Below, piece after piece: positions 13,460-38,141 of a stretch of 64,000 bases of DNA. The notes below the pieces were generated by a model that had not been told where the DNA came from, made no database searches, and saw only the letters and a program-made list of their open reading frames with translations. A program made the translations under genes and the position numbers. The stretch comes from an uncultured virus (IMG/VR IMGVR_UViG_3300025936_000003) (taxonomy: Duplodnaviria > Heunggongvirae > Uroviricota > Caudoviricetes), in the IMG/VR virus record IMGVR_UViG_3300025936_000003; one strand, written 5' to 3'. How positions within the stretch are numbered: the stretch's first letter is position 1; each line of letters opens with the position of its first letter.

Positions 13460-13460
13460 A

Positions 13461-18909: not shown

Positions 18910-18948
18910 TCGGCACGCTTTGTGCTTGCACAGCAGCTAGTGTGCCGA
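18910..18948. promoter_or_regulatory. Face-to-face pair of sigma54-type -24/-12 elements
   Basis: Plus TCGGCACGCTTTGTGCT (18910-18926) and minus TCGGCACACTAGCTGCT (18948-18932), both GG-N10-GC. Confidence 0.5.
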
Positions 18949-19082
18949 GCTGCGCTCACCTTATGCTGTGCAAGCACAGTGCATATACAGTGCAAAAGGG
19001 CTTTTGCATATATGCAAAACAGCGTATGAGCTATTTCACCTTGCTGTGCAGTGTGTTACGTAGTGCGTGCTTGTGAACTTGT

Positions 19083-19099
19083 TCGGCACGCATACTGCT
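19083..19099 (+). promoter_or_regulatory. sigma54-type promoter
   Basis: TCGGCACGCATACTGCT upstream of first plus-strand gene. Confidence 0.6.
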
Positions 19100-19169
19100 A
19101 TACTGTAAGCGTATGTCGGAAACGCAAAAACAAAAACACACTGCAAGCAATATGGAATACACACAAGTA

Positions 19170-19395
19170 AGCACTGCGCGCGCACTGCGTAGCACTACGC
19201 GCGCACTACGCAAACAGGGTTACAAACATACGCGCTACACACAAGCAGACAGGGGACGCTGCGCGCGTAGCTACTACACGCACACAAACACGCATGTTGT
19301 GTGCGTAGTGTGCAACTATTTGGAATTGGAACACTACGTGTAAGGAGCAGGCTACGCTGCGCGCGTAGTGCGCGCAGCGTAGCAAGCACGCTACA
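19170..19395. repeat. CTACGC/GCGCGC/GCGTAG repeat cluster with perfect 14-bp inverted repeat
   Basis: GCTACGCTGCGCGC-GTAGT-GCGCGCAGCGTAGC at 19351-19383 plus partial copies at 19171-19211 and 19257-19280. Confidence 0.75.
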
Positions 19396-19418
19396 CAAAC
19401 ACTAAAAACCAAAATAAA

Positions 19419-19880
19419 ATGAAGAAATCCAACAAAAACCAATCCGTATCCACCCCCGCCCCCGCTGTCCTCGACCAGCCCGCTGTCCAGCCGGAAGCTC
19501 CGGCCCCCGCGCCTGCGCTGTCCTCGGAGGAGCAAGCCGCCGCGCAAGCTGCGCTGTCCGCACAGCAGGAAGCACCCGCGCCGGCTCCGGCTCCTGCGCC
19601 TGCTGCTGCGCCTGTAGCAAACAGCAAGCGCGACGCGTTTGGAGGCAGGATTGGCACGCGCATGTCCCGCATTAACCTCGTCGTAATCGAATCGGGCAAA
19701 ACCGGCGCAACAATCGCGGAAGTCGCCGCTGCTACCGGGGAAACCAAGTCCTTAGTAAGCTCGCAGCTCTCGTGGATGGTAAGCCGGAACAAGGGCGCAA
19801 TCCGCAAAGTCGTCGCCGGCGCCATGCGCTACTACGCTGCAAGCGCCAACCCGGACCAAACCGAGCTCGCCCTTAGCTAA
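19419..19880 (+). CDS. First early protein: Ala/Pro-rich N-terminus plus winged-HTH-like domain
   Basis: GATIAEVAAATGETKSLVSSQL HTH; A-rich leader. Confidence 0.65.
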   Translation: MKKSNKNQSVSTPAPAVLDQPAVQPEAPAPAPALSSEEQAAAQAALSAQQEAPAPAPAPAPAAAPVANSKRDAFGGRIGTRMSRINLVVIESGKTGATIAEVAAATGETKSLVSSQLSWMVSRNKGAIRKVVAGAMRYYAASANPDQTELALS

Positions 19881-20338
19881 GTCGGCAGTTTGCCGCTGCC
19901 TGCCGCTTGCGTCCGACCCGCAAGCGGCAGTAGGCGGAAAACACCGCAAGAAACGACAAAACCGTATGCAATACCAAATCAACCTCACCCCGCCGACGAG
20001 GGTCTACTGCGTCAAGGCCGCCGTGTCCTCGCAGGATACTCTCACACAGGTGGTAGGTCCCGAGGAGACAATATGACACCTGAAGAAATCATCCAACTGG
20101 CGAAGCTGCTGGTGAAATACCACAACTCGATCACCAAAACCAACTCTAGCATCTACGGAGAGAAGATGGACAAGGCGCTGTGCCGGGACACTTTCACTAC
20201 GCTGTTCACCCAAGGGCACGCCCAATTCGACGAATTGAACAACGTGCAAAAAGGCTTCCTTCACCTGCCCATTAACCTCAAGGAACTCGCTAATAAAGGA
20301 GGTGAGTGAAATGATTAGAAGCTAAACACAGCATACCC

Positions 20339-20376
20339 AACACCCACTATCGCAACACGGCGAGGTGGGTGTTTTT
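20339..20376 (+). terminator. Intrinsic terminator
   Basis: AACACCCAC...GTGGGTGTT followed by T-run. Confidence 0.7.
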
Positions 20377-20562
20377 AGTGGTTTGGTGAATGAAAGTATT
20401 CGGCAATATCCCACGTGGTGAAGGGGGTGCAATAGTGGGGTCTGGTGAATCACCAATTGGGGTAGGCGAGCAGCCAATTTCGCGCTTTTCGGCTATATCT
20501 TACCCAAATGGTACCAATTTCTAGTCCTCGCATTGTCCTCATCAAACCTTCACATGGGTATC

Positions 20563-21342
20563 TTATACCACTTCTGCATCTACTATGTTCTCGGCTGTTT
20601 TCTCGGCTTCCGAGCCGTTACCCAATTCCTTTGGATTATCTCTCAACTCCCTCTTTTTCCTCACCGCATTCAATATTTCCCTTCTCGTTTCAAAACTCAA
20701 CTCTAGCTCATCTAAATTCAACGCAGAGTGGTGAATCAGTCCACTATGCTCTACTTGCATCTTTTCAGTATATCCCCTATCAGCATTCTGCGTCCGGTTT
20801 GCGAATACAATCGCCCCAGGATATCCTTCAGCTACTAACCCCATCAAGGCATCTTCAAAGAAATCTTTCTTAGCCTCTTGCAATTCCTTCAATGCCTTCT
20901 TGAACCCAATTTCTTCATTCCACCTCAAAGCCTGCTCCCTTGTCACGCCGGCTAGCCTACAAGATTTACTCATATTCCAATTGCTCAGCATCATCGCGTG
21001 CAGGAATAATTCTTGCCTCACGTGGGTCGCCAATTCCTGCCTCACTGCGCTCGGCACTCTGTTGTCATTCTGGTCAAGGTAGAATTCAACTTGCTTCCAA
21101 ATCTTCCTCGCTGGCTTGCTCAATTTCCCTAGCATGTATTCACCAACATCGTCAAGGCTCTTCTTCCTCTCTGCCGCGAGGCGATGGACAGTCATCACAT
21201 CTTCCCTCGTCTTTCTCCATCTCACCAGAGAGTCTTGAGGTACTTCTAATGTCGCTGCTAGAGCAGACAATCCCATGCCACGAAGAAGACAGTCATACAT
21301 CACGAGAAGGAATTCAAGGTTTATTTTCTTATTCGCTTTCAT
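20563..21342 (-). CDS. terS: Terminase small subunit
   Basis: NMSKSCRLAGVTREQALRW HTH, DFFEDALM, GAIVF...RGYTEKMQVEHSG signature. Confidence 0.75.
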   Translation of the reverse strand: MKANKKINLEFLLVMYDCLLRGMGLSALAATLEVPQDSLVRWRKTREDVMTVHRLAAERKKSLDDVGEYMLGKLSKPARKIWKQVEFYLDQNDNRVPSAVRQELATHVRQELFLHAMMLSNWNMSKSCRLAGVTREQALRWNEEIGFKKALKELQEAKKDFFEDALMGLVAEGYPGAIVFANRTQNADRGYTEKMQVEHSGLIHHSALNLDELELSFETRREILNAVRKKRELRDNPKELGNGSEAEKTAENIVDAEVV

Positions 21343-21472
21343 ATTCGCAGAATCTATGCTGTGCTAGTATTAGCAAGCAAGTAGGGAATTCATTCGCAAT
21401 GCAATGTAATGCAATCACGTTGCACTCTCTTGAAGACGTTCACGGAAGTGTTTGCAAATCTGCTAATTAAAC

Positions 21473-21518
21473 TCGGCATGAATCTTGCTCACTAAAAGCA
21501 GCTTTTGCAGTGTTGCAA
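21473..21518 (+). promoter_or_regulatory. sigma54-type promoter plus TTGCA-N4-TGCAA palindrome
   Basis: TCGGCATGAATCTTGCT; TTGCAGTGTTGCAA at 21505. Confidence 0.75.
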
Positions 21519-22589
21519 AGGCGAAGAAAATAAAAAGAAATGAAGACAAAAACAAAACTATTCGGTCACTTTCAAGACTTAGTCGACGCCTACGTCGGCC
21601 CGTTCGAGAGTGAAGAGGCTGTGCGTGAGCACGCCAAGTGGGCAAAGGAAGTCAGAGGCGACGGCGGTGAACTCATCGAGATTGTAACCTCAGTTCCTGA
21701 AGGTGAATTCAAAATCACGCCGGCCGAAGACAAGGCACCAATCCTCAAGAAAGGTGACAAAGTTCTCGTCACATTCGAATCGGGCAACCGGCTCAAGGGA
21801 CGCGTTGTCGAGGTGCAAGGTGAAACCTACTATGCTGAATTCGGCAGAGGTGAAAACAAATTCACCTCTTGCATCTACTGGAGCGCGTGGGGAGGCAAAA
21901 AGCCGTCATGGAAGGAGCAAGCACACTTATGAAATTCTCCACTAACATGCTCAACTACTCCAAGAAGGACCGAACCTTCTCACAGGAGATAAGCGTGCTT
22001 GAGCACACTATCCACCGGGGCAATGTTTTTCACCAAGTCTATCCTGACGCTTGCGATGAAGGCATCACGCTAGTAAGCACACAGACTGGACAGGAGGTGG
22101 ACTACGTCGTCACCAGCGTCGACCAAAACCAAGAAGGTGAAATTGCCGGCTGGTGGTTGAAGCCAACAGCTCAATCAATTCGGAGAGTCCCAGCGTGCAG
22201 AAACACTCACGTCCTCATCATCAACGACTAATGACAACACAACAGGCAATCGAAGAATTGAAGGACTTGATGAGGAGAGCGTCCTCCCTTAAAGGGGGAC
22301 GCTACTACAAGTCCGCCAAAAACAAATCTACGGTGAAGAAGGAAGCAACCCGCATTATCGAAGAGTGGGTGAAGGAGAATCTATGAACAAGGAATATGAA
22401 GAATCGCTCGACCTGCTCGAGCAAATCACCATAGCCGCGCACAGAGCAGCGGGGCTTACTGACAGCAGGACTCCACCACACTGCTTGGTGAAGCGGAATG
22501 CGAAGCTGACTGAGATTGCGAAATATCTCAATACGCTCGCCTACAATCTCGACCGAGAGGCGGTAGGGGTGAAGCTCAGATGAATGAAA

Positions 22590-22634
22590 TCGGCACAATA
22601 ACTGCTCACACTAACTAGCTTTGCAATAATGCAA
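22590..22634 (+). promoter_or_regulatory. sigma54-type promoter plus palindrome
   Basis: TCGGCACAATAACTGCT; TTGCAATAATGCAA at 22621. Confidence 0.7.
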
Positions 22635-24786
22635 AAGAAATGAAGAATATGACAAAAGAAACGAAGACAAGAAAACCAATCGATGTAACCGAAGACTTGT
22701 CAGGCGAGAAAGTGATGGAAATGCTCCACATTGCCGCCAAGAAAGAGATCCGGGAGGAAGACGACTTCAGGGTCCGTCGCCCTTACTGGGAGAGCAATAA
22801 CCAACTCGTCGTTGAATACGGCGGCCGGACGTTTTACGTCTGCCTAGAGGAGATTGTGCGCTGAGCATTTTCGCCGTTTGTGCTGGAGCTAGATAATAAA
22901 GCGCCAGCGCAAAGGGCGGCAATAACGCCGCAACAAACGAAAGAAAACGACAAATGAAAGAGACCGAGAAAGAGTTTTGGGACGCGATGAGCGAGCGTGA
23001 CAGAGAAATCTTCGCGCAGCAGGCCGAGGTTTATCGCCTGTGCGGCATCCCTGAAGGAACCAAAGTAGAGGATTACGACGGAGAAGGTGAACTGCCGAAA
23101 ACCGGCGTAGTGCTTGACTTAACCCAACACGAAGAATTCTGTGTGCTCTACAAGGATGGAGTCGAAGTCGCTCAATTCATCTCTAGCTGCCGTGGCAGTG
23201 CCTGGCTGTTTGACGCTGTGGTTTGGGCAACAGGGAAATACTACAAGGCGAGTCATCTTGAGAAGCTGGTGAACCTGCACGAGGTGAAGACGGTCGACAC
23301 GAACGACAAAGAGGTTGGGGCGTGGTTTTTCAGCAACTAAGGAGACTATGAAACGCTTCAAAATCATTTGGTCCGAGCAAACCAATTTCGCCGAGGCTTG
23401 TGAGCTAGTTAGTACCACAGTCGAAGCTGAAACGCCGGAGAAAGCCGCTCAGAATCTCGTCTACAAATGGGGATACGGAATAACGCCCGATGTGAGCGAG
23501 ATAGACAAGGGCTGTCACCACTTCTACGTCCTCCAGCCCGAGAGCAGTGAGTCCCGTCGCATGTTCATCGCAGTAGGATTGATTGTCGAGGTGGCAATAT
23601 GAAACTCACACACAACGAGGCGAGGGAATTGGTAAACGAGATGGGTGAGAGGGTCTCCAAATTGATGGAGGCTGACTTGAGCGATGTTCGCCTGCGCGAA
23701 GATGCTGTCCTCAGCACCCTGCTAGACAATGTTGAAGACGCTCTGAGCGAATTAGAATTCGCAATGGACGTCCACGCAGACAAGAAGGAGAACACCAAGT
23801 GAATAAGAAAACCGCAGCACAGCGAGGCTACGAGCACACTGGGCACTTCGCCTGGGGATACGAACGTGAGAAGCTCAAGCCTCATCTCGAAGAATACCGC
23901 CGTCAGGAATACAAGGCGATCATCGCCTCTTGTCCTCCCGACCCTCTTAGCCGAGGGCATCACGGGACTTCCTACATCATCATGGTTGAGCCGCGTTTTT
24001 ACGTGGACCAGCGTGTCAAGGCTGCGAAAGCCACAATCGACAGCTTCTCGGCTAAATCTCAAGCGATCATGGATGCTCACGTAGCCAATGCCCAGCGTGA
24101 GATTGCCGAATTATCCGCCAAACGCGACGAAGCAGCGAAATGGCTCGAAGAACACCACGCTAAGATGAAAGGAGAGGGAAAGATATGAAGACCATTCCTT
24201 ACTACCGCAAGCACGTTTACGGGAAGGTGATAGAATATGTCGCCAATCCAAACGATGCATCACTCTTGACTCAAATCACCGGCAAGCTGACTGTCGACAG
24301 CAGGATGAGGGAACTTGTCCGCGACCTGACGGGAGGACTTGTCACATTCACCGAGGTACCAATGCCATGACAGCAGAACAAATAGCACAAAAGATCCTCG
24401 ACACACTCGAGAGCCAAGGCTTTACCAATTGGCACGAGACGACATTCGAGGATTACATCGGGAGGTATCCAAAAAAGCATCCCAAACACCTCACCAAGGA
24501 GCAGATCCTGGAACAAATCACCATACTCTTCCACCTTGGGGATCTCACAGTCACCCGAGACGACGGGAAGAAGGTTGCAGTGTGTGTTCCAAAGAAATGA
24601 ATCACCACCAAGATTATGAAGCCGAGAAGAAACTCAATAAGCAGGGATTCCGATTCTCGAATTGGATCTCCGCGCAGGACCCCGAAAACCCTGAATTGGG
24701 GTGCATGGTTATGAAACGAAAGCCGACCAAGTCCTCGACCGAATACCGAGAGATTAGTCCGGACGGGAGTGTGAATTGAATCAGGT

Positions 24787-24829
24787 TCGGCACAAAACCT
24801 GCTTTACTAAGTCAGTTGCAATTATGCAA
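24787..24829 (+). promoter_or_regulatory. sigma54-type promoter plus palindrome
   Basis: TCGGCACAAAACCTGCT; TTGCAATTATGCAA at 24816. Confidence 0.7.
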
Positions 24830-27073
24830 AAACCAAAACGACAAAATGACAAAGATAACTGAAACGATTGGATTCATGCAATGCTGCCGACCCGAGGACA
24901 AACCCGCGCTGGAAGCAATTCACGCAGTGGATAGCGGTTGCATCAAGTTGGATGATGAATTCGCCAACCGAGCCGCAGACTTGATCCTCGGCGCTGAGGC
25001 AGATCAATTTGAAGAGCTGGTGAGGGCCTTGGCAGGCTTCTGCGGCACTTATGCCGCTGACGTCGGTGACGATGCCTACGCCCAAGCAGCACAGCATCTC
25101 TTCAAAGCAGCCACAGCACTACGTGGCAGGATGGGGAATTGACATGAAGGTGAAAGTTATCATCACAGCCGAGCTGAAAAGATTAGCCGGACATCCTCGC
25201 ATCCCACGAGTAGGAGATGTAGGGCAGGTCCTCGCCGTGCGCCGTGACAAGCACGTCCTAGTCAAATTCAAGGGGCGTGCTTGGCCGCTCTCACTCAAAC
25301 CAGACGAATTCAAATACATATGACAACACAAGAGATAATTGAGAGGATCCCAACAATGTCAGGAGACGACATCGAGGCGATTCTTGACGCAATAGCCAGC
25401 CACACGTCCGAAACCGCCGGCGAAGCCGTCGACCCTCAGGACGGGCAGGCTTTTGGTGAATGCACACTAGCACTGAGGAAAGCGATTAAGCATTTGAAGA
25501 AACGGACCGAATAACCAACAACAGAAAGAAAACGACAAATGAGAGAAGTCAGAAAATCAAGTCAAGACTGCGCGAAGTTCAACGCGGACAATGCCGCGAT
25601 GATAGAACTCGGCATGATGGAGGGAATCACCCCAAACAAGGAGATTGTCGAAGGAGAGGCCCGAATGAAGAAAGCCGAGGAAGAGAAGAGAAAACAGAAC
25701 GCCGACATGGTGAAGGTGTTGAAGCAAGTCTTCGACGTGCTTCCGGACTATTGCAAGAAACGATACATTGACCCGGCCGAGAAGCACCAAACCTTCTACA
25801 ACGGGGTTGGATTCAGTCAAACACCAAATTACGACTTCTACACTCCAAACTTGGAGATCGAAAGATTTCGCAGCGACACGACAGGTGAACGCTACAACCG
25901 CGCCGTCGTCGGCTATTACGGCGACAAGAAGATGGTGAAGCTCAAGAATAGCATCGTGACAAAAGACGAGGTGACTAGAATCTTGAGGAACATCATCGAC
26001 GCTTGCGACGTTGCCGATACGAAGGCAGCCAAGGAACGCCTCGCCAAGATGGCAGCTGAACGGAAGAAGGACTATGCCGCCAGCCATCCAGACTTCATGA
26101 AGACGATGGGTATCGACATCTACAGCAACTGGGAAATCGAGGATGACGGGAGAATTACCATCCACTACCAGCACTCGGGTCTCGGCAGCACTCACAGTTT
26201 CACCGCCTTGCAATGGCTCGAATACGAGAAGATGAGAGCTGAATATCTCGCACAGCGAAAGGCTTTGGTGGATCGGTTTGAGTCCACCAACAAAGCGGCG
26301 ACCTAATCGTTGCTGCCTGCGGCGTTGGTTGCTTTGTCGTTTCCAACGCCGCAGTGAGCAGGGATTATCCTGTATCAAACCAAGAAAGACATGAAAATAG
26401 AAGAATACATAACCAAGATCGCAGTGGCAACCCCGGTGGGGTTCACCAAGCAGGCCACTGTAGGTTACCACGACGGTTCCTACCATCACACCCACAACGT
26501 CCCGCCTGGAGACACGGCAGTCGTCATCGAGAAAGATGACGTCAGGATCGTCTTCAACATCGGCACCAAGAAGAAAGATGACTACCCCAAAGGGACGACA
26601 ATCGCTGCCAGCGGGCACACCCTATTCAAGACAGCGAAGGGATGGCACAATCTCAGCCGCAGAGGAGTTGACGATGCTTTCTACACCAACGAGCTGGAAG
26701 AGCCGTCGGTGGTGATCGAGCGTGAGATTGCTCGTGCTCAAGCAAGCAAGAAGCGCAGCGAAGAATTGATCGACGTGCCGGGCCTGCCCTTCCGTGTGCA
26801 TCCTGAAAAGCTCCCAGAAATCAAAGCCAAGCTCGCCAAAGGGAAGGTTCACGAACTTCATCCTTACGGGTTCGGCATTGGCTACCGCCTCGCCAAGAGG
26901 TTGAGCAGCTGGGCCAAACCTGCCCCTCCTGAAACGTCAGCCTTCTTCGGCGTCAGATTGGTGATGGAAACGATGGACTGCGACTGATTCAATTCAATTG
27001 CAAGCGCAGTGTTTTGCACTGCGCTTGCAACGTCGCCAATGAATTCATTTACAAGACCTGCAACAAAATGCGT

Positions 27074-27118
27074 CCGGCATGAATCTTGCTCACACTAACT
27101 AGCTTTGCAATAATGCAA
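27074..27118 (+). promoter_or_regulatory. sigma54-type promoter plus palindrome
   Basis: CCGGCATGAATCTTGCT; TTGCAATAATGCAA at 27105. Confidence 0.75.
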
Positions 27119-28554: not shown

Positions 28555-28599
28555 TCGGCATGAATCTTGCTCATACAAACTAGCTTTGCATGTTTGCAA
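28555..28599 (+). promoter_or_regulatory. sigma54-type promoter plus palindrome
   Basis: TCGGCATGAATCTTGCT; TTGCATGTTTGCAA at 28586. Confidence 0.75.
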
Positions 28600-29048: not shown

Positions 29049-29810
29049 ATGAAAGTATCTGACGAGATCCTTGAGAAGCTGACGAAGATTCTCAGACTGG
29101 CGAACGACCGGGCCGCGCAACCTGGTGAGATTGAGGCTGCGATGGGCAAAGCGAGAGAACTTGCAATGCGTCACAGCATCGACCTCGCTTCGGTCAACCT
29201 GAATCCGGACACCAAGATCGAAGGTGGAATCGAAGTCGAGAAGAACTCAACACTGAAGACGAGATCGAAATACAAACAGCCCTACCACTATTGGGTTTTC
29301 GGCGTCTTGCAAGAGGTGTTTGAGGTGAAGGTGATCATCTCAGAATACAGCGACTACAACGGAGGGAAGGTCATCAGCGCGATTCACATCATTGGCGAAG
29401 CAGTAGATGTTGCCATCGCCTGCGCGGTTTACCCTTTCCTTGAGAAGGTGTTTCCGGCTACGCTCAGCCGGGCCGTATCGGCTGGAACGCTAACATACTG
29501 CGCCGCTCACACCAACGGCTGCTACCGTGGGATACACTGGGGCATCATCGAGGCTAATAAGCGCGAGGTTGAAAAGCTCAAGAAGGAAGAGCAGCAGACC
29601 CTCGCGATGGTAATCAGGAAGAAAAGCGAGGTTGTCGAGGCCGCGATGTACCAAATGTTCCCAGCTATGAAGGCTCGCCAAGAGATGGAGAAGAGACTGA
29701 ACAAAGGGAAAGAAAAGAAGGCCCGCAGGGTGCAGATGAGTTGGGAAGCTCTGAACTACGGGCACGCCGAAGGGAAAAAGATCAACCTCAAACAAGTCGG
29801 CGACAAATGA
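29049..29810 (+). CDS. DUF2786-domain protein
   Basis: ILEKLTKILRLA...EIEAAMGKARELAMRHSID N-terminus. Confidence 0.75.
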   Translation: MKVSDEILEKLTKILRLANDRAAQPGEIEAAMGKARELAMRHSIDLASVNLNPDTKIEGGIEVEKNSTLKTRSKYKQPYHYWVFGVLQEVFEVKVIISEYSDYNGGKVISAIHIIGEAVDVAIACAVYPFLEKVFPATLSRAVSAGTLTYCAAHTNGCYRGIHWGIIEANKREVEKLKKEEQQTLAMVIRKKSEVVEAAMYQMFPAMKARQEMEKRLNKGKEKKARRVQMSWEALNYGHAEGKKINLKQVGDK

Positions 29811-30554
29811 AACAATTTACCTCTAAGGTGGGCGTGGTACGCGACGACGTGTCGCGTCGAGGGGTCTTCTCCTCTTTGAATCACCATCCTAGAGGTTTCG
29901 AATCATATGAAACAAGAAACTGAAATTGCTCTGTTTGAGAAACTCTCAGAGAACCACAAGCTCGGCTCGTTCAAGGTGAAGAAGAACGAGGAAGAATCAA
30001 ACGACTGTCAAACCTGGTGGGACATCGGCCCGCTGGACAAGGAAGGGACTCTAATCGACACGTTCTACATCGTCCAAGACAAGGGAGAAAAATGGTTCGA
30101 GGTTTACCTCTGGGTCCACTACCCAGGCAACCGCGATGAACCGCCAAGCATGGACGAAAGAATGATTGGAGGTAACTATCTTGCACTGGGCTGGGCCTTG
30201 CGAACCATCCTTCATGAAACCCTCAACCAAATCATCAACGACAGTGGTGAAGAGGCCTACCACACAGAGATTGAAAAGGAGCAGGATGAATACGAAGAAG
30301 CAAACCGTCGCGAGCTTCGCAGAATGGCAGGTGAAGAATGACATCGAAACAATTCTTCGACACGTTAGAGTTTCACGGGTATGAATTCGTCAAGTGGGAC
30401 GGAATGCTAACAGCTATCGTCGCCAAAGACGGGAAAGAATTCTACGCGAGACAGGACACAGACTATCACCTGGAGGGATGCCCACAGTATATTGTCATCC
30501 ACGAATGGCCAATCACTCAGGTCGTCGTTCAGATCATCAAAGAGGAAGATTTCT

Positions 30555-31427
30555 TCAGACAAGGCATGCGGCGCGCCGGATCCTCTTCAACTCCTTCAAT
30601 GAAGCCTCACCAGGGTCCTTAGCGTCGATAACTAGATTAGTCGTTTCTCCAGCGAAGCACGCGAGTTGCTCACACAGCTCGCGTGCCTTGCTTTGCGCTT
30701 CCTTTGACGAATCGAAACAGATGAACCTGCGAGGGATTTGAGCGAGCTTCTTCACTTGAGCTGTGGTGAAGGTAGTCCCTAGCAAAGCACCTGCCCCCGG
30801 CCCTATCTTCCAGACATCAACCGGGCCCTCGACCACCACGATGGTATGGGAACAGTAATCTTGGCCGTAGACACAATTCTTGACACTGACGGAACTCTCA
30901 TCAATGCCAGCTGAAATATATCGTTGGCCGATTTTGTCTCCTATTGAACGAGTCGTCCAGCTGACCTTCTTCCATCTCTGAAAGATTGGGATGTAGATCC
31001 TCCAGGATAGTCGGCTAGATATCCCAATCCCTCCAATCGACCACAGTCTCTGGAGGTCAGCGGGATCGAAGCCGCGATCCCTTAAATACCTCTCGTGTGC
31101 AGGTTGCAACGGTCCTACACCCCGCGGTTCTTTAAGCGCGATCTGCGTTCTCTCGTGTTTGATTGCTGCGCTTGCTACTTTGCCCGCAGTAACAAATTGC
31201 CACGCGAGAGATTTAGACGATCCCAATTCGATAAGGAGCCAGTAGAGGCTGTGTCCACCGCAGCGCCAGCAGGCACTGAATTTGCCGCTGATGTTGATTC
31301 CAAGATGGTAACGATTGGAACCGCAATAGGGACAAACCCTCAGCTGAACCCACCCAGGCCGGCAGTGGTGATGACCAGACTCAAGGAAGTCAATCTTCAA
31401 TTCGTTCAATAATTCCTGGATCGTCAT
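30555..31427 (-). CDS. DNA primase (Zn finger + TOPRIM)
   Basis: CPYC...CWRC; YLRDRG; RIYIPI; VVVEGPVD; ICFDS; KDPGE. Confidence 0.85.
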   Translation of the reverse strand: MTIQELLNELKIDFLESGHHHCRPGWVQLRVCPYCGSNRYHLGINISGKFSACWRCGGHSLYWLLIELGSSKSLAWQFVTAGKVASAAIKHERTQIALKEPRGVGPLQPAHERYLRDRGFDPADLQRLWSIGGIGISSRLSWRIYIPIFQRWKKVSWTTRSIGDKIGQRYISAGIDESSVSVKNCVYGQDYCSHTIVVVEGPVDVWKIGPGAGALLGTTFTTAQVKKLAQIPRRFICFDSSKEAQSKARELCEQLACFAGETTNLVIDAKDPGEASLKELKRIRRAACLV

Positions 31428-31441
31428 CGCAAAGTATTATC

Positions 31442-31757
31442 AACCACCCCACACCATGCCTTCGGCATGGTCTCCTTTGCAATCCACCCGCTCTGTTCGT
31501 ATTCGATGGATTGAGAAACAAGAAGACGGTCTCCGCGAAGAATGCTTTCAGTTGCCCTCGGCGTGTCTGGCGCTCGCCATTAACCTTGCGTGAACTCGCA
31601 GGCAACCCACGGTTATCAACAAAACCGCTGGATGAAATTCACCTCGCTTTTAGTCAGTGCTCGGTATCGAACTGGCCCACCGCTTCTCTGGTTTCCTTCA
31701 ACCGATTGACGCCGAACAACCATCAATCCAGCAGGCAGCAGCAGAGTATATGTCTCC
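31442..31757 (-). ncRNA. Candidate structured RNA upstream of primase
   Basis: No convincing ORF; starts after AGATAATA (31765-31758); several nested stems (see findings). Confidence 0.35.
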
Positions 31758-31876
31758 TATTATCTGATCATGCCTTATGCTTTGCTTTGCAATGCGGTCA
31801 CGTTGCATTATTACATCTGCAAACGATGTGGTGAAAGACACTCATTGACTCTCAACGCTTCTTTTGCTTGATGAAA

Positions 31877-31922
31877 TCGGCATGAGTCTTGCTCATAAGT
31901 AGTCATGTTAGCAAACATGCAA
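31877..31922 (+). promoter_or_regulatory. sigma54-type promoter plus palindrome
   Basis: TCGGCATGAGTCTTGCT; TAGCAAACATGCAA at 31909. Confidence 0.7.
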
Positions 31923-32869
31923 ACTTTCAAATTCAACAAGAACCTAGTGGAGGTTCAGAAGGACTCAGTGGTCCTTACTCTTCGCAAGGACGGGTTCGTC
32001 GCGTCCCGCGAAACTGAAACTCTCCGCACCAACGCCACCCAATCCCAAATCGCACTCAGCTGCGGATGGGGATTTGCAGTCACACCCTTAACCAAATAAT
32101 TCATATGCCACACAATCGAGAAGTCCGAGTCACCTGGAAAGACTGGTGCGTAGGAGCCACCAGCGACGGAACCAAAACTGTCGCCCATCCGTTCAGGGTT
32201 ATCAACCGGAAGCACTACCCAGGCGAACTTTACGGGAAAGAGTTCAAGACGTCCGATGAGGCCTTCGCCGCAATGGATGGACGAGGTTATTCCCAAGTCT
32301 ACTACGCTCGCAGTAGTGTCGTCGAAGGGGCTTTCAAAGGGCTCGCTTGTCAAGAGCGACAAGCGAAGTTCGACGCACTCTACCGGCTGTGGAAGTGGCG
32401 CAAGCGAAACGGTCTTTGCGCCGAATGCACTGCCGGGTTGGAGAAGGAACTCGCCAAGCTCGCCGAGCAAGTCGGTATCTTCCACCCTTGCACAAAACGA
32501 TTCAGGAAGGTGACATTGCCGCTCAAGGGAAGGACGAAGAAGGTGGCATGAAAGCCTTTCCCTTCTTCAATCCAGCCGACTGCCCATTCGAGGTCTTAGG
32601 ATACCGAGAGGATCTCATGGACGCGATGACGGGCAAGCTGCTCGGCACACGAGAGATTCCAGAGCCGGACCGCCCGCTCGGGTCGAATGGAATGAAGGAA
32701 TACACCATCACCGAGGCGATTGTGCTGAAGAGAGGTCATAAAGAATTCATCCTCAAAGCCAGCCCGCAGCGGCCAAAGAGGGTAGTAGGAATGATTCAAA
32801 TACTCTGCGGGAAAGTAAAACGACAACCAAAATAATACTTGCAGAGATGCCGAGAGGCCTTATACTGCC

Positions 32870-33412
32870 ATGCACAATATGAACCATATGAACCATATGC
32901 CCGCCGTCGATCCAGATGAGGAACTTCCAAAGGTAGAGAAGCTAATTTACGACCTTGCCTGGAAGTTCACCAAAACATACCCAATCGACTTTGAAGAGGC
33001 TCGCAGGGAGGCTTACTACGCCTTCGTCCGCGCCTGCTACGACTACAACCCTGAGCGAGGAACGAAGTTTTCGTCTTGGGTCTACACTTGGATATGGTGC
33101 CACTTGAAGACCCTCATTACCAAACGCACCGTCGAACCTCTCGTCTTCATCGAAGTGAAAGACGAGATCTTCGGTGAAGCGGCTCCTGACAGAAGTCCAA
33201 CGCTGGACATGATAGGCGACTTATCCGAGGACGCGAAGGAGATCATCAAGCTCTTGCTTGAAACGCCGGGCGAGCTGCTTGGTGGTGCCTGCACGCCGAA
33301 ACAGCTCTTGCACAAGGTGAAGAACTACTTGGTGGGCAAGGGTAGGCCGAAAGCTGAAGTGGACAAGGCTCACAAAGAGATTGTGACGAAGTTTCGAGAG
33401 GCGTGGGCATGA
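32870..33412 (+). CDS. Phage sigma70-family factor with region 2, no recognisable region-4.2 HTH
   Basis: LIYDLAWKF...FEEARREAYYAFVRACYDYNPERGTKFSSWVYTWI = region 2; LSEDAKEIIKLL resembles the start of region 4.1 only. Confidence 0.75.
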   Translation: MHNMNHMNHMPAVDPDEELPKVEKLIYDLAWKFTKTYPIDFEEARREAYYAFVRACYDYNPERGTKFSSWVYTWIWCHLKTLITKRTVEPLVFIEVKDEIFGEAAPDRSPTLDMIGDLSEDAKEIIKLLLETPGELLGGACTPKQLLHKVKNYLVGKGRPKAEVDKAHKEIVTKFREAWA

Positions 33413-33630
33413 CACCGCTAGAACAACGACAGATGAGACGGATCGAGCAACCCGCTCCAGGAGTGAAGATGCTGGCGAATAGCAACATGACGAAAGCACG
33501 CATGGTAGGGATCTGCCAGGATGAAGGACTCGACACGTCCGGCACAAGGCTGGATCTCGCCAAGCGCATCGTGGAGCACAGGTCCGCAGAGTTTTCACGA
33601 GCGTGGGATGCGATTGCGGGGAAGACTTGA
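33409..33630 (+). CDS. SAP-motif small DNA-binding protein
   Basis: MTKARMVGICQDEGLDTSGTRLDLAKRI resembles SAP consensus. Confidence 0.5.
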   Translation: MTPLEQRQMRRIEQPAPGVKMLANSNMTKARMVGICQDEGLDTSGTRLDLAKRIVEHRSAEFSRAWDAIAGKT

Positions 33631-34985
33631 AAGAGACTAAACTCAGACCTTTTCAAATAGAAGGAGTCCAGCAAATTTACCGCTTCAAAGGTCGCGTCTT
33701 GCTGGCGGATGAGATGGGCCTTGGTAAAACGATTCAGGCCCTCTACTGGATCAAGAAGATTCCAAAGCGACGTCCTGTCGTCATCATCGCCCCAGCTTCT
33801 ATGAAATACGTCTGGCAGAGCGAGGCTGCTCTTCACTTCGGCATGAGAACTGAGGTTCTTGAAGGACATCACAAGGGGCAGAGGCCCCAACTCATATCTG
33901 AAGACATCATCATCATCAACTATGACATCCTTCGCTCCTGGTTGCCGTCGCTGCTGAAGGCCGATCCCCAGTGCGTGATTCTAGATGAGTGTCACTACAT
34001 CAAGAACAAAGATGCCAAGCGAACGAAAGCAGCCTTGCAATTGACCGAGAACGCTTCATCTGTGCTGGGACTTAGCGGCACTCCTCTCACCAATCGGCCG
34101 ATTGAACTTTGGACAATCTTGAAGGCCATCAGACCTGACTTATTCCCCGACCACAACGAATATGCTTGGCGATACTGCAAACCGCGATGGACGCGGTGGG
34201 GATGGGTGTATGACGGTGCTGTGCGGACGCCAGAACTCCATAAGATCTTGCGCCGAGAGTGCATGATTCGGCGCTTGAAAAAGGACGTGCTAACAGAGCT
34301 GCCCGACAAAACGAGACAGATGGTTCCGTTCCGTCTCAAGTCCTATGAAGAATATGACCAAGCCGAGAATGACTTCCTACTTTGGCTTAGGCGAATCAGT
34401 CCGCAGAAAGCCCAGCGAGCAAAGCGAGCCGAAGCACTCGCAAAGATGGGGTACCTGATACGACTCGCTGCCAGGTTGAAGATGGACTGGACCGAACGGT
34501 GGATTGAAGAGTTCTATGAATCCCATCCCGGCGAGAAGCTCGTTGCAATGACGTGCTGGACCTTCGTCATAGATCATTTGAAGCAGAAGTTCGGCGACCG
34601 AGCCGTCGTCATTGACGGCCGGGTGACAGGGCGGCAGCGAGAAGAAACCAGACGATGCTTTCAATCCAACAAGCGGGTAGATCTGCTGCTAGGCAACTGG
34701 CGAGCCGCTGGCATCGGCATCACCCTCACAGCCGCGTCCAACCTAGCTTCACTGGACCTTCCATGGACACCAGGAGACCTGCTGCAAGGAGAAGATCGTA
34801 TTCACCGGATTGGGCAGAAGATGAAAGTGGTTATTCATTACCTGATGGCCTTGGACACGATAGAGGAGAAGCAGGTTAACATCCTCAGGAAGAAGACGAA
34901 GATTCTCGATGCCATATTGGACGGTAAGAGGCCGGCCAAAGACTTGAATATCTTCGACGCACTGATCGAAAGGATGACAAAATGA
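33627..34985 (+). CDS. SNF2-family helicase
   Basis: LLADEMGLGKT, ILDECH, LSGTPLTN, GIGITLTAA, QGEDRIHRIGQ; TTG start assumed. Confidence 0.92.
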   Translation: MKETKLRPFQIEGVQQIYRFKGRVLLADEMGLGKTIQALYWIKKIPKRRPVVIIAPASMKYVWQSEAALHFGMRTEVLEGHHKGQRPQLISEDIIIINYDILRSWLPSLLKADPQCVILDECHYIKNKDAKRTKAALQLTENASSVLGLSGTPLTNRPIELWTILKAIRPDLFPDHNEYAWRYCKPRWTRWGWVYDGAVRTPELHKILRRECMIRRLKKDVLTELPDKTRQMVPFRLKSYEEYDQAENDFLLWLRRISPQKAQRAKRAEALAKMGYLIRLAARLKMDWTERWIEEFYESHPGEKLVAMTCWTFVIDHLKQKFGDRAVVIDGRVTGRQREETRRCFQSNKRVDLLLGNWRAAGIGITLTAASNLASLDLPWTPGDLLQGEDRIHRIGQKMKVVIHYLMALDTIEEKQVNILRKKTKILDAILDGKRPAKDLNIFDALIERMTK

Positions 34986-35119
34986 AGGACGAAACACTGC
35001 TCATCCAGGGGATTCCAATCAAGGTGAAAGCTTCTTTCAAGGCCGCCTGCGCGAAGCAAGGCAAAACGATGAAGCAAATCGTCATACTGTTCATGCAGGA
35101 ATTTGTGAAGCGCAGATAA
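34982..35119 (+). CDS. Ribbon-helix-helix (ParG-like) protein, 45 aa
   Basis: Manual translation MKDETLLIQGIPIKVKASFKAACAKQGKTMKQIVILFMQEFVKRR. Confidence 0.65.
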   Translation: MKDETLLIQGIPIKVKASFKAACAKQGKTMKQIVILFMQEFVKRR

Positions 35120-35125
35120 TAGTTT

Positions 35126-36163
35126 GTGAGAATGGTCTCCATCAAATTGGTGAATTTCCAGGCGCACGACGAGCTGGTAATAGACATCGACCCCCAAATC
35201 ACCACCATAAAGGGCCCGACGGATGTTGGTAAGTCGTCCATCCTTCGGGCCCTGAGGTGGATTTGCTTGAATGACATCGCCGGTGAGGCCTTCATCAAAG
35301 AGGGTGAGAAGAAGACAATCGTCAAGCTGACCGTCGAAGAGGAAGGGAACCCAGGTAAGTGGACTGTCAAACGAGTTAGGGGAACAGGCGGAAGCGTCAA
35401 CACCTACGAGCTGGACAGCAATGAATTCAAAGCCTTTGGCAACGGTGTGCCCAAGCAGATAGGTGACATTCTCCATCTAAACGAAATCAATTTCCAAGGG
35501 CAGCATGACAGCCCTTTCTGGTTCAACGAGACTGCCGGCGAGGTGTCTCGTCGTCTCAATTCGGTCATCGATCTCAGCGTCATCGACGACGTGCTCGGCA
35601 ACATTGCGTCAGAAGTGAGAAGGTCCCAGGAGAGAATCAGTCTCACTAACGAGCGTCTCACCGAAGCGAAAAGTGAGTATGAGAAGCTTAAGCCAATGGA
35701 GGACCGGATCACCGACTTTGAGTTCCTCAAGCTCGACAACGAGAGCCTACTCACCATCGAAGCGAGATTCACCAAGCTCGGCAGTCTCATCACCAGAGTG
35801 AGAGAAGCGAAGATTCGCATCACCGAGTTTGAAGAGAAATTCACAGAAGGCAAGGATATCGTCGCGCTGGGAGCTGAAGCCATCTCACTCAATGACTCGG
35901 CTGATGAGCTGAGAGACCTTATCAAGCAGGTTGAAGCCTTGCAGAAGGTGAAAGCCCCACCTCCTCTCGATTCTGTCACGACTGCTTACGATGCATGGCA
36001 GGATGCGGTTGGAAAGGCTGGCAATTTAAGGCTTAAATACATTCGCCTCGTTGAAGCCTCTAATGCCGAATCTACCTGGAAGGAAAAGCTTCGGCTCGCC
36101 GAGAACAAGTTTCACCAGCAAACCAAAGGGAAGAACTGTCCGGTGTGCGAAAAGCCAATATGA
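35126..36163 (+). CDS. SbcC/Rad50-like ATPase, N-terminal half only
   Basis: LVNFQAH, Walker A GPTDVGKSS, Q-loop FQGQHD, coiled coil, ends at zinc hook CPVC. Confidence 0.85.
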   Translation: MRMVSIKLVNFQAHDELVIDIDPQITTIKGPTDVGKSSILRALRWICLNDIAGEAFIKEGEKKTIVKLTVEEEGNPGKWTVKRVRGTGGSVNTYELDSNEFKAFGNGVPKQIGDILHLNEINFQGQHDSPFWFNETAGEVSRRLNSVIDLSVIDDVLGNIASEVRRSQERISLTNERLTEAKSEYEKLKPMEDRITDFEFLKLDNESLLTIEARFTKLGSLITRVREAKIRITEFEEKFTEGKDIVALGAEAISLNDSADELRDLIKQVEALQKVKAPPPLDSVTTAYDAWQDAVGKAGNLRLKYIRLVEASNAESTWKEKLRLAENKFHQQTKGKNCPVCEKPI

Positions 36164-37080
36164 GCGAACCTATTGCCATAGCGATTGCAGACTTGCACCT
36201 GTCCCTCTTGCAGCCTGCTTGCCGGGCCGATAAGGACTGGCTAGAAGTGCAGGCGGGATATCTCAAGCAAGTGAAGGATATCACCGAAGGATTTGATGAC
36301 CCGAGTCGTCGTCTCCCAATCCTCTGTGCCGGCGACATCTTCGATAGGTGGAACGCACCACCCGAACTCATCAACTTCGCATTGCAGCATCTCCCGGACG
36401 GAATGATCTGTGTGCCGGGTCAGCACGACCTTCCTAATCATCGCACAGACCAAGTCCATCGCAGTGGTTACGGCGTGCTCAAGCAAGTAGGCAAGATCGT
36501 GGACATCAGCGGCAAGCGAACGAATAAAGATATTGGACTTCTAGTCTATGGTTTTGAATGGGGGTCAGAGATACTCCCTCCTGATCATGAAAAGCCTGAT
36601 CTTCTTCAAGTCGCACTCATCCATCAGTATTGCTGGACCGACTTCCACTCCTATCCCGGCGCACCTGAAGATTCCAATCTCAGCAAGTTTGCGAAGTCTC
36701 TCAAAGGATACGACGTCGCTATCTTCGGCGACAACCACAAGGGCTTCCTGAGCGAGCTCAAGACAGGAACCACTGTGCTCAATGTCGGCGGATTCATCCG
36801 TCGCAAGTCTGACGAGATTGGCTACAATCCCAGCGTGGGCATCATCTACAGCGACGGGACGGTGAAGCGTTGCAAGCTAGACACGTCGGCCGATAAGTTT
36901 CACGAAGAGATTGCCGAGCGTGAAGAAGTCCCGTTGAACATGAAAGAGTTCATCGACGGGCTAGAGGGACTCGGCGAACACGGGCTGAACTTTAGGGAGG
37001 CCGTCGAGAATCACCTGAGAGACGAAGAACTGACACCTGCTGTCAAACAGATCATAAAGCAATGTCTGGAACCAAAATGA
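36160..37080 (+). CDS. sbcD: SbcD/Mre11-like metallophosphoesterase nuclease
   Basis: ADLH, AGDIFD, PGQHD, GDNH. Confidence 0.88.
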   Translation: MSEPIAIAIADLHLSLLQPACRADKDWLEVQAGYLKQVKDITEGFDDPSRRLPILCAGDIFDRWNAPPELINFALQHLPDGMICVPGQHDLPNHRTDQVHRSGYGVLKQVGKIVDISGKRTNKDIGLLVYGFEWGSEILPPDHEKPDLLQVALIHQYCWTDFHSYPGAPEDSNLSKFAKSLKGYDVAIFGDNHKGFLSELKTGTTVLNVGGFIRRKSDEIGYNPSVGIIYSDGTVKRCKLDTSADKFHEEIAEREEVPLNMKEFIDGLEGLGEHGLNFREAVENHLRDEELTPAVKQIIKQCLEPK

Positions 37081-37748
37081 CGATACCGGTAGGATACGTG
37101 AGGGTTTTCAACAACGGTGAAACCTACATCCAACCCAGCGAATTCACAAGCAAGGGCAAGCGCATCTTCTATCTGGAGTGTCAAGACCTCACCGTTCAAA
37201 CCAACAGTGGGCTAGACGAGACTCTGCGGCTGTGGGTTGCTATTGGGCAGCCTAAAGTCTTCTCGGCCGGGACCGTCGGATGAAGAACTGGTGTCAACAT
37301 ATCCAGTGGGGGTCACCACAAGATCAACCACGCGGTGGTTGGATTATCTACTTGGACCAAGTCCATGCCCAGGTGGTCGTCATTCCACGGACATGGAAGG
37401 TCTGCCCGATCTGTCAAACACCTCGCCCTGGCAAGGTTGAAGCAAGAAACGAAAGTGACGAGCGAGTTGCGAAGATGAAGAAGATGCCCGCATGAAAGCC
37501 ACTCACTGCGCCACCATCGGAAACAAGCAAGACGTGACTGCTTGGCAATTCAGTCGCACAGCTCCCATCCCTGTCTGGGTGGCTAGGAAATTTCACCAAA
37601 TCCCAGAAGCAGAGGGGTGGACCGCAGTAGACACGAATGGGAAGTTGGTCGAAGCGAAAGAAGGTGACTGGGTTGTCGCTCCTGATGTAGGGACCTGCTT
37701 CGTCCTCACCAACGAAGAATTTAATGAATGTTTCAAACCACTGATACC

Positions 37749-37997
37749 ATGAGCGAAGTCATTTCAGAAGAAACCTACCGGCGTCTCAAGCGAGATGTGG
37801 AGAACGCGAAGACCGAAGCCGACCGGGCCAAAGGTGCTCTCACGCAGATTACGACCCAGCTAGAAGACGAATTCGGAGTCAACAATCTGAAGGAGGCGAA
37901 GGAAGCTCTCACCGAGCTGGAAGCCAAGCGCGACAAGGCTAAGGATAAGTTCGACACCGCGCTGAAAGAATATCAGAAAAAATGGATTGCTGACTAG
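37749..37997 (+). CDS. Small coiled-coil protein (possible SbcCD-associated subunit)
   Basis: Heptad-rich 82 aa ORF near sbcD. Confidence 0.45.
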   Translation: MSEVISEETYRRLKRDVENAKTEADRAKGALTQITTQLEDEFGVNNLKEAKEALTELEAKRDKAKDKFDTALKEYQKKWIAD

Positions 37998-38095
37998 CCG
38001 TCAGCGGTCGCATTGCAGATCATTAGCTTTTGCAAGTATAAGAATCAATTCGTTCACCTACACTTTAAGACTCAACACTTTAGCTCTAAGTGAAA

Positions 38096-38141
38096 TCGGC
38101 ATGAGTCTTGCTCATACTAATTAGCTTTTGCAATAACGCAA
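38096..38141 (+). promoter_or_regulatory. sigma54-type promoter plus palindrome
   Basis: TCGGCATGAGTCTTGCT; TTGCAATAACGCAA at 38128. Confidence 0.75.

Follow-up and report, generated by a model that had tools for sequence, protein, structure and literature searches.

The early and replication genes of an uncultured siphovirus (genome about 70 kb, of which a 64-kb stretch, here called the window, was analysed) are headed by a repeated element, YCGGCAY-N6-TGCT, which we tentatively interpret, at slightly less than an even chance, as a set of early promoters bound by the sigma-54 holoenzyme of the host. This interpretation had been put forward in a preliminary description of the same DNA, and we favour it because sigma-54 is the only host sigma factor whose known site resembles the elements. 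The sites have the properties of promoters for the early and replication module, being co-oriented with the genes, intergenic and, in three cases, positionally conserved. The sigma-54 assignment itself was supported in part by the geometry of the sites and by a host matrix that picks seven of them among its top nine positions, but not by the C at -26 or by a T-yATA tail that has no host counterpart.

Results

When the window was scanned with the pattern YCGGCAYNNNNNNTGCT (YCGGCAY-N6-TGCT), 10 matches were found against a mean of 0.11 expected from 100 dinucleotide shuffles, the largest count in any shuffle being 1. Nine lie on the plus strand at the positions claimed in the preliminary description (18910, 19083, 21473, 22590, 24787, 27074, 28555, 31877 and 38096), and a tenth, absent from it, occupies 18932-18948 on the minus strand. 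The invariant GG-N10-GC spacing and the sigma-54-type geometry that it described were seen in 10/10 sites, with GG and GC exactly 10 bp apart, and the form CGGCATGA(A/G)TCTTGCT was present at the five sites expected (21473, 27074, 28555, 31877 and 38096). The GGCAY and (y)TGCT parts of the sigma-54 consensus are present in the window sites and the C of TGC is invariant across sites; the T at -26 is absent, this base being C in 10/10 window sites, and other phage lineages have T or G there. A longer conserved element had been missed, in which TGCT is followed by yAyA and then, in 7/9 plus-strand sites, by a TTGCA-N4-TGCAA-type palindrome 29-32 nt past the motif start; the longer form GG-N10-GCTYAYA gave 8 matches against 1.42 expected.

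That each copy is intergenic and heads a gene unit was borne out by the ORF map for eight of the ten sites (19083 to 38096). These promoter-like sites, all on the plus strand and scored in bits with the host groES matrix described below, begin at 19083-19105 with TCGGCAC-N6-TGCT-ATAC (12.5 bits; homologous site in the relative G003), where the ATG of a 76-aa ORF stands 15 nt past the C of GC. They continue at 21473-21495 with TCGGCATGAATCTTGCT-CACT, heading the unit from 21540 (10.9 bits), at 22590-22612, heading the unit from 22640 (15.1 bits, the top-scoring position of the window), at 24787-24809, heading the unit 24816-26987 (13.1 bits; G003 homologue at 23137), and at 27074-27096, a CCGGCAT variant heading the unit from 27144 (6.9 bits; G003 homologue at 21493). 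The last three are at 28555-28577, heading the unit 28635-30622 with a DUF2786 gene (10.4 bits), at 31877-31899, heading the unit with a sigma-like gene, an SNF2 helicase and SbcCD (12.3 bits; ATG 13 nt past the C of GC), and at 38096-38118, heading the DUF932 unit (11.2 bits; G003 site at 10734). The remaining two copies are not at a unit head; they face each other (18910-18926 plus, 18932-18948 minus) inside a 63-bp imperfect palindrome at 18898-18960 (DNA fold -18.4 kcal/mol, z -2.56) and have low host-matrix scores (3.4 and 7.9 bits). The palindrome is an insertion relative to G003, an 85%-identical relative without it, and on this comparison the pair is a lineage-specific palindromic insertion.

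Relatives with 50-85% protein identity retain the core, GG-N10-GC and then T-yATA, at corresponding positions, whilst spacer and flanks drift. In G003, 6/6 exact sites lie on one strand, and in G002, a relative of about 55-60% protein identity, three sites of the form CGGCATGrGCTGTGCT, at 4102, 4279 and 50692, head the homologues of the 28555, 31877 and 38096 units respectively, so that three window sites are positionally conserved. More distant relatives carry TTGGTCT..CTTGCTTATA, CGGGCAC..TCGCTTATA and similar variants. In distant relatives the -24 box is reduced to GGTC or GGCC with only GG surviving, and GCT-TATA is the best-kept part. The GG-N10-GC spacing, on whose constancy in homologous phages the earlier proposal depended, was kept throughout (6/6 in G003, 3/3 in G002, and also at the G004-G006, L019 and L061 sites). 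An ATG or GTG opening an ORF was found 12-15 nt past the C in eight sites (19083 and 31877 in the window, 29167 in G003, 4279 and 50692 in G002 and three in G005/G006; distances outside the window were read by eye), which fits a transcription start at C+12.

The motif runs in the direction of the genes at 8/8 unit heads in the window, at 6/6 sites in G003 and in the divergent pair of G002. This strict co-orientation argues against the motif being the target of some phage DNA-binding protein (for example a repressor, replication or partition factor) instead of a promoter, as do its asymmetric flanks (TCGG versus TGCTyATA), the fixed distance to the ORF start in those eight sites and the lack of any other promoter candidate for the units in sigma-70 and sigma-A scans. 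Such a binding site, which we consider very improbable, would be in keeping with the short inverted repeat GCA-N7-TGC within the motif and with the abundance of palindromes in the intergenic spacers. One of these is the TTGCA-N4-TGCAA palindrome downstream of the core at 22621-22634, a candidate operator, with further copies at 19004, 21505, 24816, 27105 and 28586 and variants at 31908-31922 and 38128-38141. Its arms are kept as sequence, without compensating changes, and the palindrome is also enriched in many Bacteroidota genomes. Palindromes lying roughly between -90 and -50 and between +28 and +40 may be regulator sites, for activation or shut-off, and the TTGCA repeats in the upstream interval are possible activator sites.

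The host is probably a member of the Bacteroidota, because no Shine-Dalgarno sequence precedes the 40 confident genes of the window and the terminase matches lie in that phylum; the best are to Croceibacter and Riemerella phages, and the only two in the genome collection are to Dyadobacter and Pontibacter, both of which have rpoN. Known sigma-54 promoters are flanked by TGGCAC and TTGCW. In the upstream regions of Cytophagales groES, TGGCAY-N6-TG[C/A]W was present in 20/32, 54-212 nt before the gene. A matrix built from 19 of these 20 sites (one near-duplicate was dropped), which serves as a model of the presumed host, placed phage sites at ranks 1, 2, 4, 5, 7, 8 and 9 of about 128,000 window positions; the likeness can be seen by setting the Dyadobacter groES site TGGCATAGATTGTGCTTAC beside the phage site TCGGCATGAATCTTGCTCAT. 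The consensus is quoted as TGGCAC..TTGCT in PMC12316311, and in the account given in PMC9723704 a -24/-12 motif drives groES/EL and proteases in Flavobacterium psychrophilum. With these Bacteroidota promoters (SM4 of F. psychrophilum, as described in that account, and Cytophagales groES) the phage sites share the GG-N10-GC spacing, GGCAY at -24, TGCW at -12, T at -14, a free spacer and a position upstream of a gene (13-135 nt). They differ in having C (or G) at -26, where T was found in 19/19 host-type groES sites, in adding the conserved T-yATA at -11 to -7, and in being viral elements without a known activator or the TGTCA/TGACA repeats found upstream of the host groES sites. Across 41 Cytophagales genomes TGGCAYN6TGCW occurred at 2.0 times the reversed control and CGGCAYN6TGCW at just 1.3 times; no enrichment of the T-yATA tail was detected in 301 Bacteroidota genomes, none of which stood out (counts were per genome, not summed).

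Other host promoter types were sought at the same unit heads. Sigma-70-type -35/-10 pairs (TTGACA-like and TATAAT-like hexamers 16-18 bp apart) numbered 13 in 18500-38400 against 12.1 expected, with none at unit heads. In Bacteroidota sigma-A promoters the -33 TTTG stands about 19-21 bp from the -7 box, and no full site, TTTG-N17-23-TAnnTTTG, was found in the sense direction at unit heads. A lone -7 box, TAGCTTTG, follows 3/9 plus-strand sites, 10 nt downstream, with variants at other sites. This raises the unlikely alternative that sigma-54 holoenzyme docks on the element without driving the genes and that an overlapping or adjacent promoter, such as the TAGCTTTG box, fires, gated or poised by the bound but inactive holoenzyme. 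The three perfect boxes, the failure to find an activator in the window or G001-G005, and the facing pair 18910/18932, which cannot fire both ways at once, are all compatible with docking. Yet the TAnnTTTG box is missing at 19083 and 31877 in the window and at all G002 and G004-G006 sites, an ORF start or A-rich leader directly follows the core at sites without it, a -33 TTTG at the required spacing is lacking, and the facing pair is the lineage-specific insertion described above.

The window annotation contains no RNA polymerase gene, and the portion of G002 without a counterpart in the window holds siphovirus tail genes. The phage does encode a 180-aa member of the sigma-70 family containing region 2 (32870-33412, plus strand; Pfam Sigma70_r2, E 1.6e-7; phrog_351), which has weak RpoS and SigA matches and a G002 homologue at 5644-6198, and a small, 83-aa helix-turn-helix protein similar to sigma-70 region 4 (18022-18276, minus strand; Pfam Sigma70_r4, E 7e-8), a candidate regulator. 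The sigma-like gene lies downstream of site 31877, and in G002 the sole element upstream of it is motif site 4279, in a divergent region. Among SNF2 loci a sigma homologue was present in 28/80; the 23 sigma-carrying loci of more distant phages lack the motif, their three single regex matches looking like chance. As a target for the phage sigma, another motif, AGATAATAR, is the better candidate. The phage also encodes a 7-deazaguanine pathway, and modified G in the injected DNA, if present, could affect major-groove reading of GG and GC.

These proteins bring in the other alternative of some weight, possible but in our judgement well below even, that the elements form a promoter class peculiar to the phage, recognised by way of a sigma-70-family factor, and that their likeness to sigma-54 sites is coincidental. 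TGC-T-yATA would then be an extended -10-like element, with the (T)CGG box contacted by a phage co-factor or by the phage sigma-like protein, an arrangement similar to that of T4 middle promoters. The conservation of GCT-TATA above all other parts across lineages, the exact TGC-TATAnn at 19083, at 29167 in G003 and at one site in G005/G006, and the TCGGCA standing 11 nt before CATACT point this way, as do a -24 flank that changes from lineage to lineage, as expected of a co-evolving box, the region-2 and region-4-like proteins themselves and the lack of an encoded enhancer-binding protein in the window and G001-G005. However, the boxes are 7 nt apart where -35/-10 pairs of the sigma-70 family are separated by 16-18 nt, and the supposed -10 hexamer does not keep its final T. 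Furthermore, in both the window and G002 the motif precedes the sigma-like gene itself, with nothing else upstream in the latter, the distant sigma-carrying SNF2 loci are without the motif, and AGATAATAR would suit the phage sigma better. The invariant C of TGC and the fixed GG-N10-GC spacing would also be left unexplained; that C is not required by the sigma-70 'TGn' extended -10 and is counted for sigma-54. The Bacteroidota sigma-A -7 box, moreover, is given in PMC9723704 as TAnnTTTG, not TATAAT.

Sigma-54-dependent promoters require an AAA+ enhancer-binding protein with binding sites upstream, and no gene for such a protein was found in the window or G001-G005. The preliminary description had seen no activator, and a Pfam search of the 86 window ORFs agreed, with PF00158 matching nothing beyond part of the P-loop (positions 6-61 of 168) of a protein at 55898-56830, the clamp loader, which is assigned best to DNA_pol3_delta2. 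Beyond the window, none was found in the 90%-complete relative G002; PF00158 matches in the window and G001-G005 were to the clamp-loader P-loop only, and Sigma54_DBD had no match in the Pfam search of window and relatives.

Discussion

On the sigma-54 interpretation, host RpoN holoenzyme would bind the core with GG at -24 and GC at -12 and start about 12 nt past the C. We infer that unmodified host holoenzyme reads the sites first, because the phage has no polymerase and its own sigma-like gene lies behind one site. The ATPase activator would be supplied by the host or by an unrecognised phage protein, and the T-yATA after the GC may ease DNA opening, lowering the activation barrier, or may constitute a further signal that overlaps the first. 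One expects the early promoters of a phage to be strong and unconditional and to be made for the main sigma factor of the host, and sigma-54 is, to our knowledge, the one bacterial sigma factor unable to start without an ATP-driven activator. For a lytic phage to place all its early units on such a factor is unexpected a priori. Bacteroidota sigma-54 drives a stress regulon of chaperones and proteases. The full proposal is doubtful: a lytic-type siphovirus infecting Bacteroidota would transcribe practically all of its early and replication genes, the sigma-like gene among them, from sigma-54 promoters whilst encoding no activator, so that a host enhancer-binding protein would gate the start of infection and couple it to the stress state of the host.

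Known systems resemble the elements in part. In middle promoters of T4 a MotA box precedes a sigma-70 -10 by about 12 bp; like the present sites, they are two-box promoters of short spacing, used after the first minutes of infection. They need MotA and AsiA made from earlier host-type promoters, whereas neither an earlier host-type promoter class nor a MotA/AsiA homologue was seen in the window (annotation, Pfam and promoter scans). In Enterobacteriaceae, the overlapping sigma-54/sigma-70 promoters of glmY/glmZ, which belong to a chromosomal small-RNA system known to be activated by GlrR, share with the phage sites a -12 GC overlapping a -10-like AT-rich hexamer, whereas here there is no sigma-70-type -35. 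The view that sigma-54 is used by no characterised phage must be qualified, since phage YuA carries a sigma-54-like promoter (PMC10914365). YuA is likewise a siphovirus without its own RNA polymerase (2008 work cited in PMC10914365); as it is presented there, one sigma-54-like region stands beside sigma-70-like and phage-specific promoters, whereas at least eight units share the element here, no ordinary host promoter was seen and the host phylum differs.

Should early transcription in this phage family indeed rely on sigma-54, infection would depend on a signal from the host, and a virulent phage would be sensing the state of its host in a way that is new. The Bacteroidota, for which few genetic tools exist, would also gain a ready-made series of short promoters that are tightly off. 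The question posed is what reads a promoter whose boxes stand 10 bp apart, and even if a rival reading is right, the element marks out the transcription units in a phage clade that is uncharacterised.

A conserved element at the head of early gene units

The element YCGGCAY-N6-TGCT was found 10 times in the window, against a dinucleotide-shuffle mean of 0.11 (maximum 1). All nine plus-strand sites of the preliminary description, which had read them as a sigma-54 (RpoN, -24/-12) promoter array, were recovered at their coordinates (18910, 19083, 21473, 22590, 24787, 27074, 28555, 31877 and 38096), with five of them indeed having the common form CGGCATGA(A/G)TCTTGCT, and a tenth site, 18932-18948, is on the minus strand. 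The conserved stretch exceeds the motif as first described, with tGAAtGAAA often found upstream and yAyA 3' of TGCT, and a palindrome of the TTGCA-N4-TGCAA type starts 29-32 nt past the motif start in 7 of the 9 plus-strand sites. The claim that all sites are intergenic and head gene units held for the eight from 19083 to 38096, which are co-oriented and lie in ORF gaps, but not for 18910(+), which forms a facing pair with 18932(-) within a 63-bp imperfect palindrome (18898-18960). This segment is missing from the 85%-identical relative G003, and the pair was left out of the count of unit promoters.

G003 carries 6 exact sites on a single strand, and the related phage G002 (67 kb, CheckV completeness 90%, protein identity to the window 50-77%) carries 3 of the form CGGCATGrGCTGTGCT, whose downstream units are homologous to those at 28555, 31877 and 38096. 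The GG-N10-GC spacing, variation of which in homologous phages had been set beforehand as grounds for rejecting the sigma-54 reading, was constant while the six spacer bases varied (GAATCT versus GGGCTG in different phages, with GG, GC and their distance unchanged). Relatives of 53-65% identity have TTGGTCTGGAACTTGCTTATAGT, CGGGCACAACACTCGCTTATATAA, GGCCGGTCCGCTGCTTATAG and similar sequences; across lineages GG, (T)GCT and TATA are invariant, position -26 may be C, T or G, and in some GGCA is replaced by GGTC or GGCC. Phages with an SNF2 helicase of 50% identity or less (75 loci) showed no element in the fetched DNA beyond scattered single matches, the repeats in four distant SNF2-helicase loci were of other kinds, and a loose regular expression found nothing recognisable in the prophage-like loci L142 and L143. 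Judged from sequence, the element is real and conserved and forms the promoter core of the early units; we consider it very unlikely to be a non-promoter site.

Further sequence is shared around some sites. A block, (A)ATGAATTCAT(T/C)T, was seen ~30-50 nt 5' of several motif sites in the window (27035-27050, 28510-28525 and 38040-38060), G003 and G002 (4225-4240; all coordinates approximate and read by eye), and might serve as an UP-like element or bind a bending protein. The G002 sites 4279(+) and 50692(-) have ~100 bp of identical upstream sequence together with the first ~90 nt of a small ORF (locus L051, 4180-4400; locus L053, ~10600-10800), with the upstream 80 bp also common to 4102(-); this shared block is a promoter cassette that has been copied within a single genome.

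Genome organisation and likely host

Megablast of 18-30 kb of the window gave no match among isolated phages, indicating a phage without a near isolated relative, and tblastn with its sigma-like protein also gave no match. Head genes (portal, head-morphogenesis protein, scaffold or protease, major capsid protein) occupy the minus strand at 3.1-18.7 kb together with several glycosyl- and methyltransferases. Nearly every gene beyond 19.1 kb is on the plus strand, in the order ~13 kb of small, functionally unassigned ORFs, a sigma-70-family protein (32870-33412), SNF2 helicase, SbcCD, a DUF932 protein and a DnaB-like helicase, followed 3' by 7-deazaguanine genes, large terminase, a split family-A DNA polymerase, clamp and clamp loader, and a UvsX-like recombinase; G002 supplements these with siphovirus tail genes. 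No RNA polymerase-like gene was found in the window annotation or in the additional part of G002, and the phage therefore needs the host polymerase. The window has no tRNA and no Rfam families (0), and 0 of 40 confident genes have a Shine-Dalgarno sequence, their leaders being A-rich. The top terminase matches among isolated phages were a Croceibacter phage (38%) and a Riemerella phage (36%), and the terminase alignment (A1) against 185,579 species genomes gave only 2 places, Dyadobacter bucti and a Pontibacter, both Cytophagales. On these grounds the host is likely to be a member of the Bacteroidota.

Between the head-morphogenesis and scaffold genes, 5184-5831 and 10150-14971 hold a sialyltransferase-like gene, 3-4 glycosyltransferases and 2 methyltransferases, and the presence of such genes amid head genes suggests glycosylated virion proteins. 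The head genes and the large terminase (50883-52355), which has replication genes for neighbours, are on opposite strands, and the family-A DNA polymerase (52531-55503) is split into two genes of 401 and 490 aa with a small NTP-pyrophosphohydrolase gene between them. QueD-, QueE-, FolE- and DpdA/TGT-like genes for 7-deazaguanine DNA modification lie at 45118-47873, and a second GTP-cyclohydrolase-like gene with QueC (62645-63699) completes the full set; the injected DNA may thus contain modified G, and this could affect how the GG and GC boxes are recognised.

Sigma-54-type groES sites of the likely host group

The groES upstream regions compiled here came from Dyadobacter, from Pontibacter and from 30 additional loci of an order-level set of 41 genomes. 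TGGCAY-N6-TG[C/A]W lay 54-212 nt 5' of the gene in 20 of the 32 regions, with no such site in the other 12 by the expressions used. These sites agree with the published Flavobacterium psychrophilum map, which in the part consulted describes a -24/-12 motif driving groES/EL and proteases, TAnnTTTG at -12 to -5 read by the main sigma, and an absence of Shine-Dalgarno sites (PMC9723704). One near-duplicate was dropped, and in all 19 sites kept the base before GG was T, though the first, looser expression had left it free; the Dyadobacter sequence, TGGCATAGATTGTGCTTAC, closely resembles the phage TCGGCATGAATCTTGCTCAT.

When both window strands were scanned with a matrix of 24 columns derived from the 19 host sites only, phage sites took ranks 1, 2, 4, 5, 7, 8 and 9 (10.4-15.1 bits), with two unrelated window positions scoring within the same range, while the score was 6.9 bits for 27074 and 3.4 and 7.9 bits for the palindrome pair. 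Background at 10 and 12 bits was taken from the 2 non-motif matches in the top nine; the shuffle control at 3.4 bits, the lowest site score and too lax to discriminate, gave 89 versus 84.2. The N6-TGC form was adopted because canonical TGGCACN5TTGCW (up to 2 mismatches) was barely enriched in the window (40 versus 29.9) and not enriched in Dyadobacter (7 versus 13) or Pontibacter (8 versus 6) relative to the reversed control. Supplements 2-4 of PMC12316311 offered neither a promoter matrix nor promoters from Bacteroidota.

Several observations run against sigma-54. As the preliminary description had noted, no activator is visible: no enhancer-binding protein was found in the window or in the relatives G001-G005. 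The PF00158 matches in the window, G001, G002 and G004 covered no more than model positions 2-61 of 168, in a clamp loader, and this model also matches in 14 of 14 control genomes. A domain for DNA binding of the sigma-54 type was likewise not found in the phage. The phage element has C at -26 against T in 19 of 19 host sites, and across 41 Cytophagales genomes the T form numbered 1392 versus 701 in the control (2.0x) and the C form 974 versus 738 (1.3x). The extended motif gave 1 match in Dyadobacter and 2 in Pontibacter, and the T-yATA tail was not enriched in 301 Bacteroidota genomes (counts not summed). That sigma-54 docks at the element without driving genes is, in our assessment, improbable.

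The groES sites (20/32; loci L147, L148, L151-L180) are preceded by repeated TGTCA/TGACA half-sites (TGTCA-N4-TGACA in Pontibacter), which look like the activator site of a Bacteroidota sigma-54 chaperone regulon. In the phage, in contrast, the half-sites are TTGCA and lie between -90 and -50 and between +28 and +40, or, in G002, there is a TGTATAA..TTATACA palindrome near -80. The full 14-bp TTGCA-N4-TGCAA lies at 19004, 21505, 22621, 24816, 27105 and 28586 in the window, and genomes G213, G087, G123, G137 and G142 hold 70, 44, 37, 37 and 32 copies against 0-4 in the reversed control (pairwise, 70 versus 1, 44 versus 1 and 37 versus 2 in Bacteroidota genomes). Since it is so strongly enriched in some Bacteroidota, it is probably a host-type regulator's site, and we propose it as a candidate operator of a widespread regulator; 15 of its genomic contexts showed no tie to sigma-54 sites. 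In the 2.0-Mb genome G123 the palindrome is mostly TTGCATATATGCAA and lies in intergenic DNA.

Other promoter types and the phage sigma-like protein

Sigma-70-type -35/-10 pairs occurred at chance level at 18.5-38.4 kb (13 versus 12.1), with 0 at unit heads, and no full Bacteroidota main-sigma site was found there in the sense direction. A lone TAGCTTTG box lies 3' of three window sites and is missing at the other sites and in G002 and the relatives G004-G006.

The main rival, that the element is a phage-specific promoter read via a sigma-70-family factor, we regard as possible but doubtful. The sigma-like gene lies downstream of site 31877, and in G002 its homologue follows site 4279, the region being divergent and holding nothing else upstream; a phage sigma whose own gene is behind the motif is therefore unlikely to read the sites first. 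A sigma homologue is also present in 28 of 80 SNF2 loci, 23 of them from distant phages without the motif. An ORF-opening ATG or GTG lies 12-15 nt past the C of GC in eight sites (window 19083 and 31877; G003 29167; G002 4279 and 50692; three in G005/G006; the six outside the window read by eye), so that any transcription start must fall within ~12-15 nt of this C. This limit fits the sigma-54 rule and a -10-like TATAnn read by a sigma-70-family factor alike, and does not separate them.

A second motif, AGATAATAR, occurred 10 times in the window versus 0.32 expected (6412, 22891, 28614, 31757, 35114, 38180, 40710, 44344, 56832 and 62617), always co-oriented with local genes, mostly 1-20 nt 5' of start codons, and in both modules; G002 has 13 GATAATAR sites, and a motif of this type is also present in G003. 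It is a better candidate than the element for a phage-sigma promoter, or else for a translation signal: it may be a -10-only promoter of leaderless messages read by the sigma-like protein or, given the TAA and TAG within it, a signal for translation or for stop-restart.

Sigma-54 and phage early expression

Full-text search of the literature on sigma-54 with phage promoters found no phage with an early programme built on sigma-54, in agreement with the earlier statement that no characterised phage is known to work in this way. That statement does not extend to every use of the factor, as phage YuA is described, in the part of the source consulted, as needing sigma-70 as well as sigma-54 (PMC10914365). 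A sigma-54-like protein is predicted in Pectobacterium phage Q19, again from part of the source (PMC7693777), and known precedent for phage use of sigma-54 is thin. Taken together, the result of the independent matrix, the constant GG-N10-GC, the C of TGC that never varies, the absence of other promoters of host type and the place of the gene for the sigma-like protein point to the host sigma-54 holoenzyme as the reader of the element; this is the single best explanation, and one we put forward tentatively, at somewhat short of an even chance, by which the early units of this phage would be read by a holoenzyme of its host.
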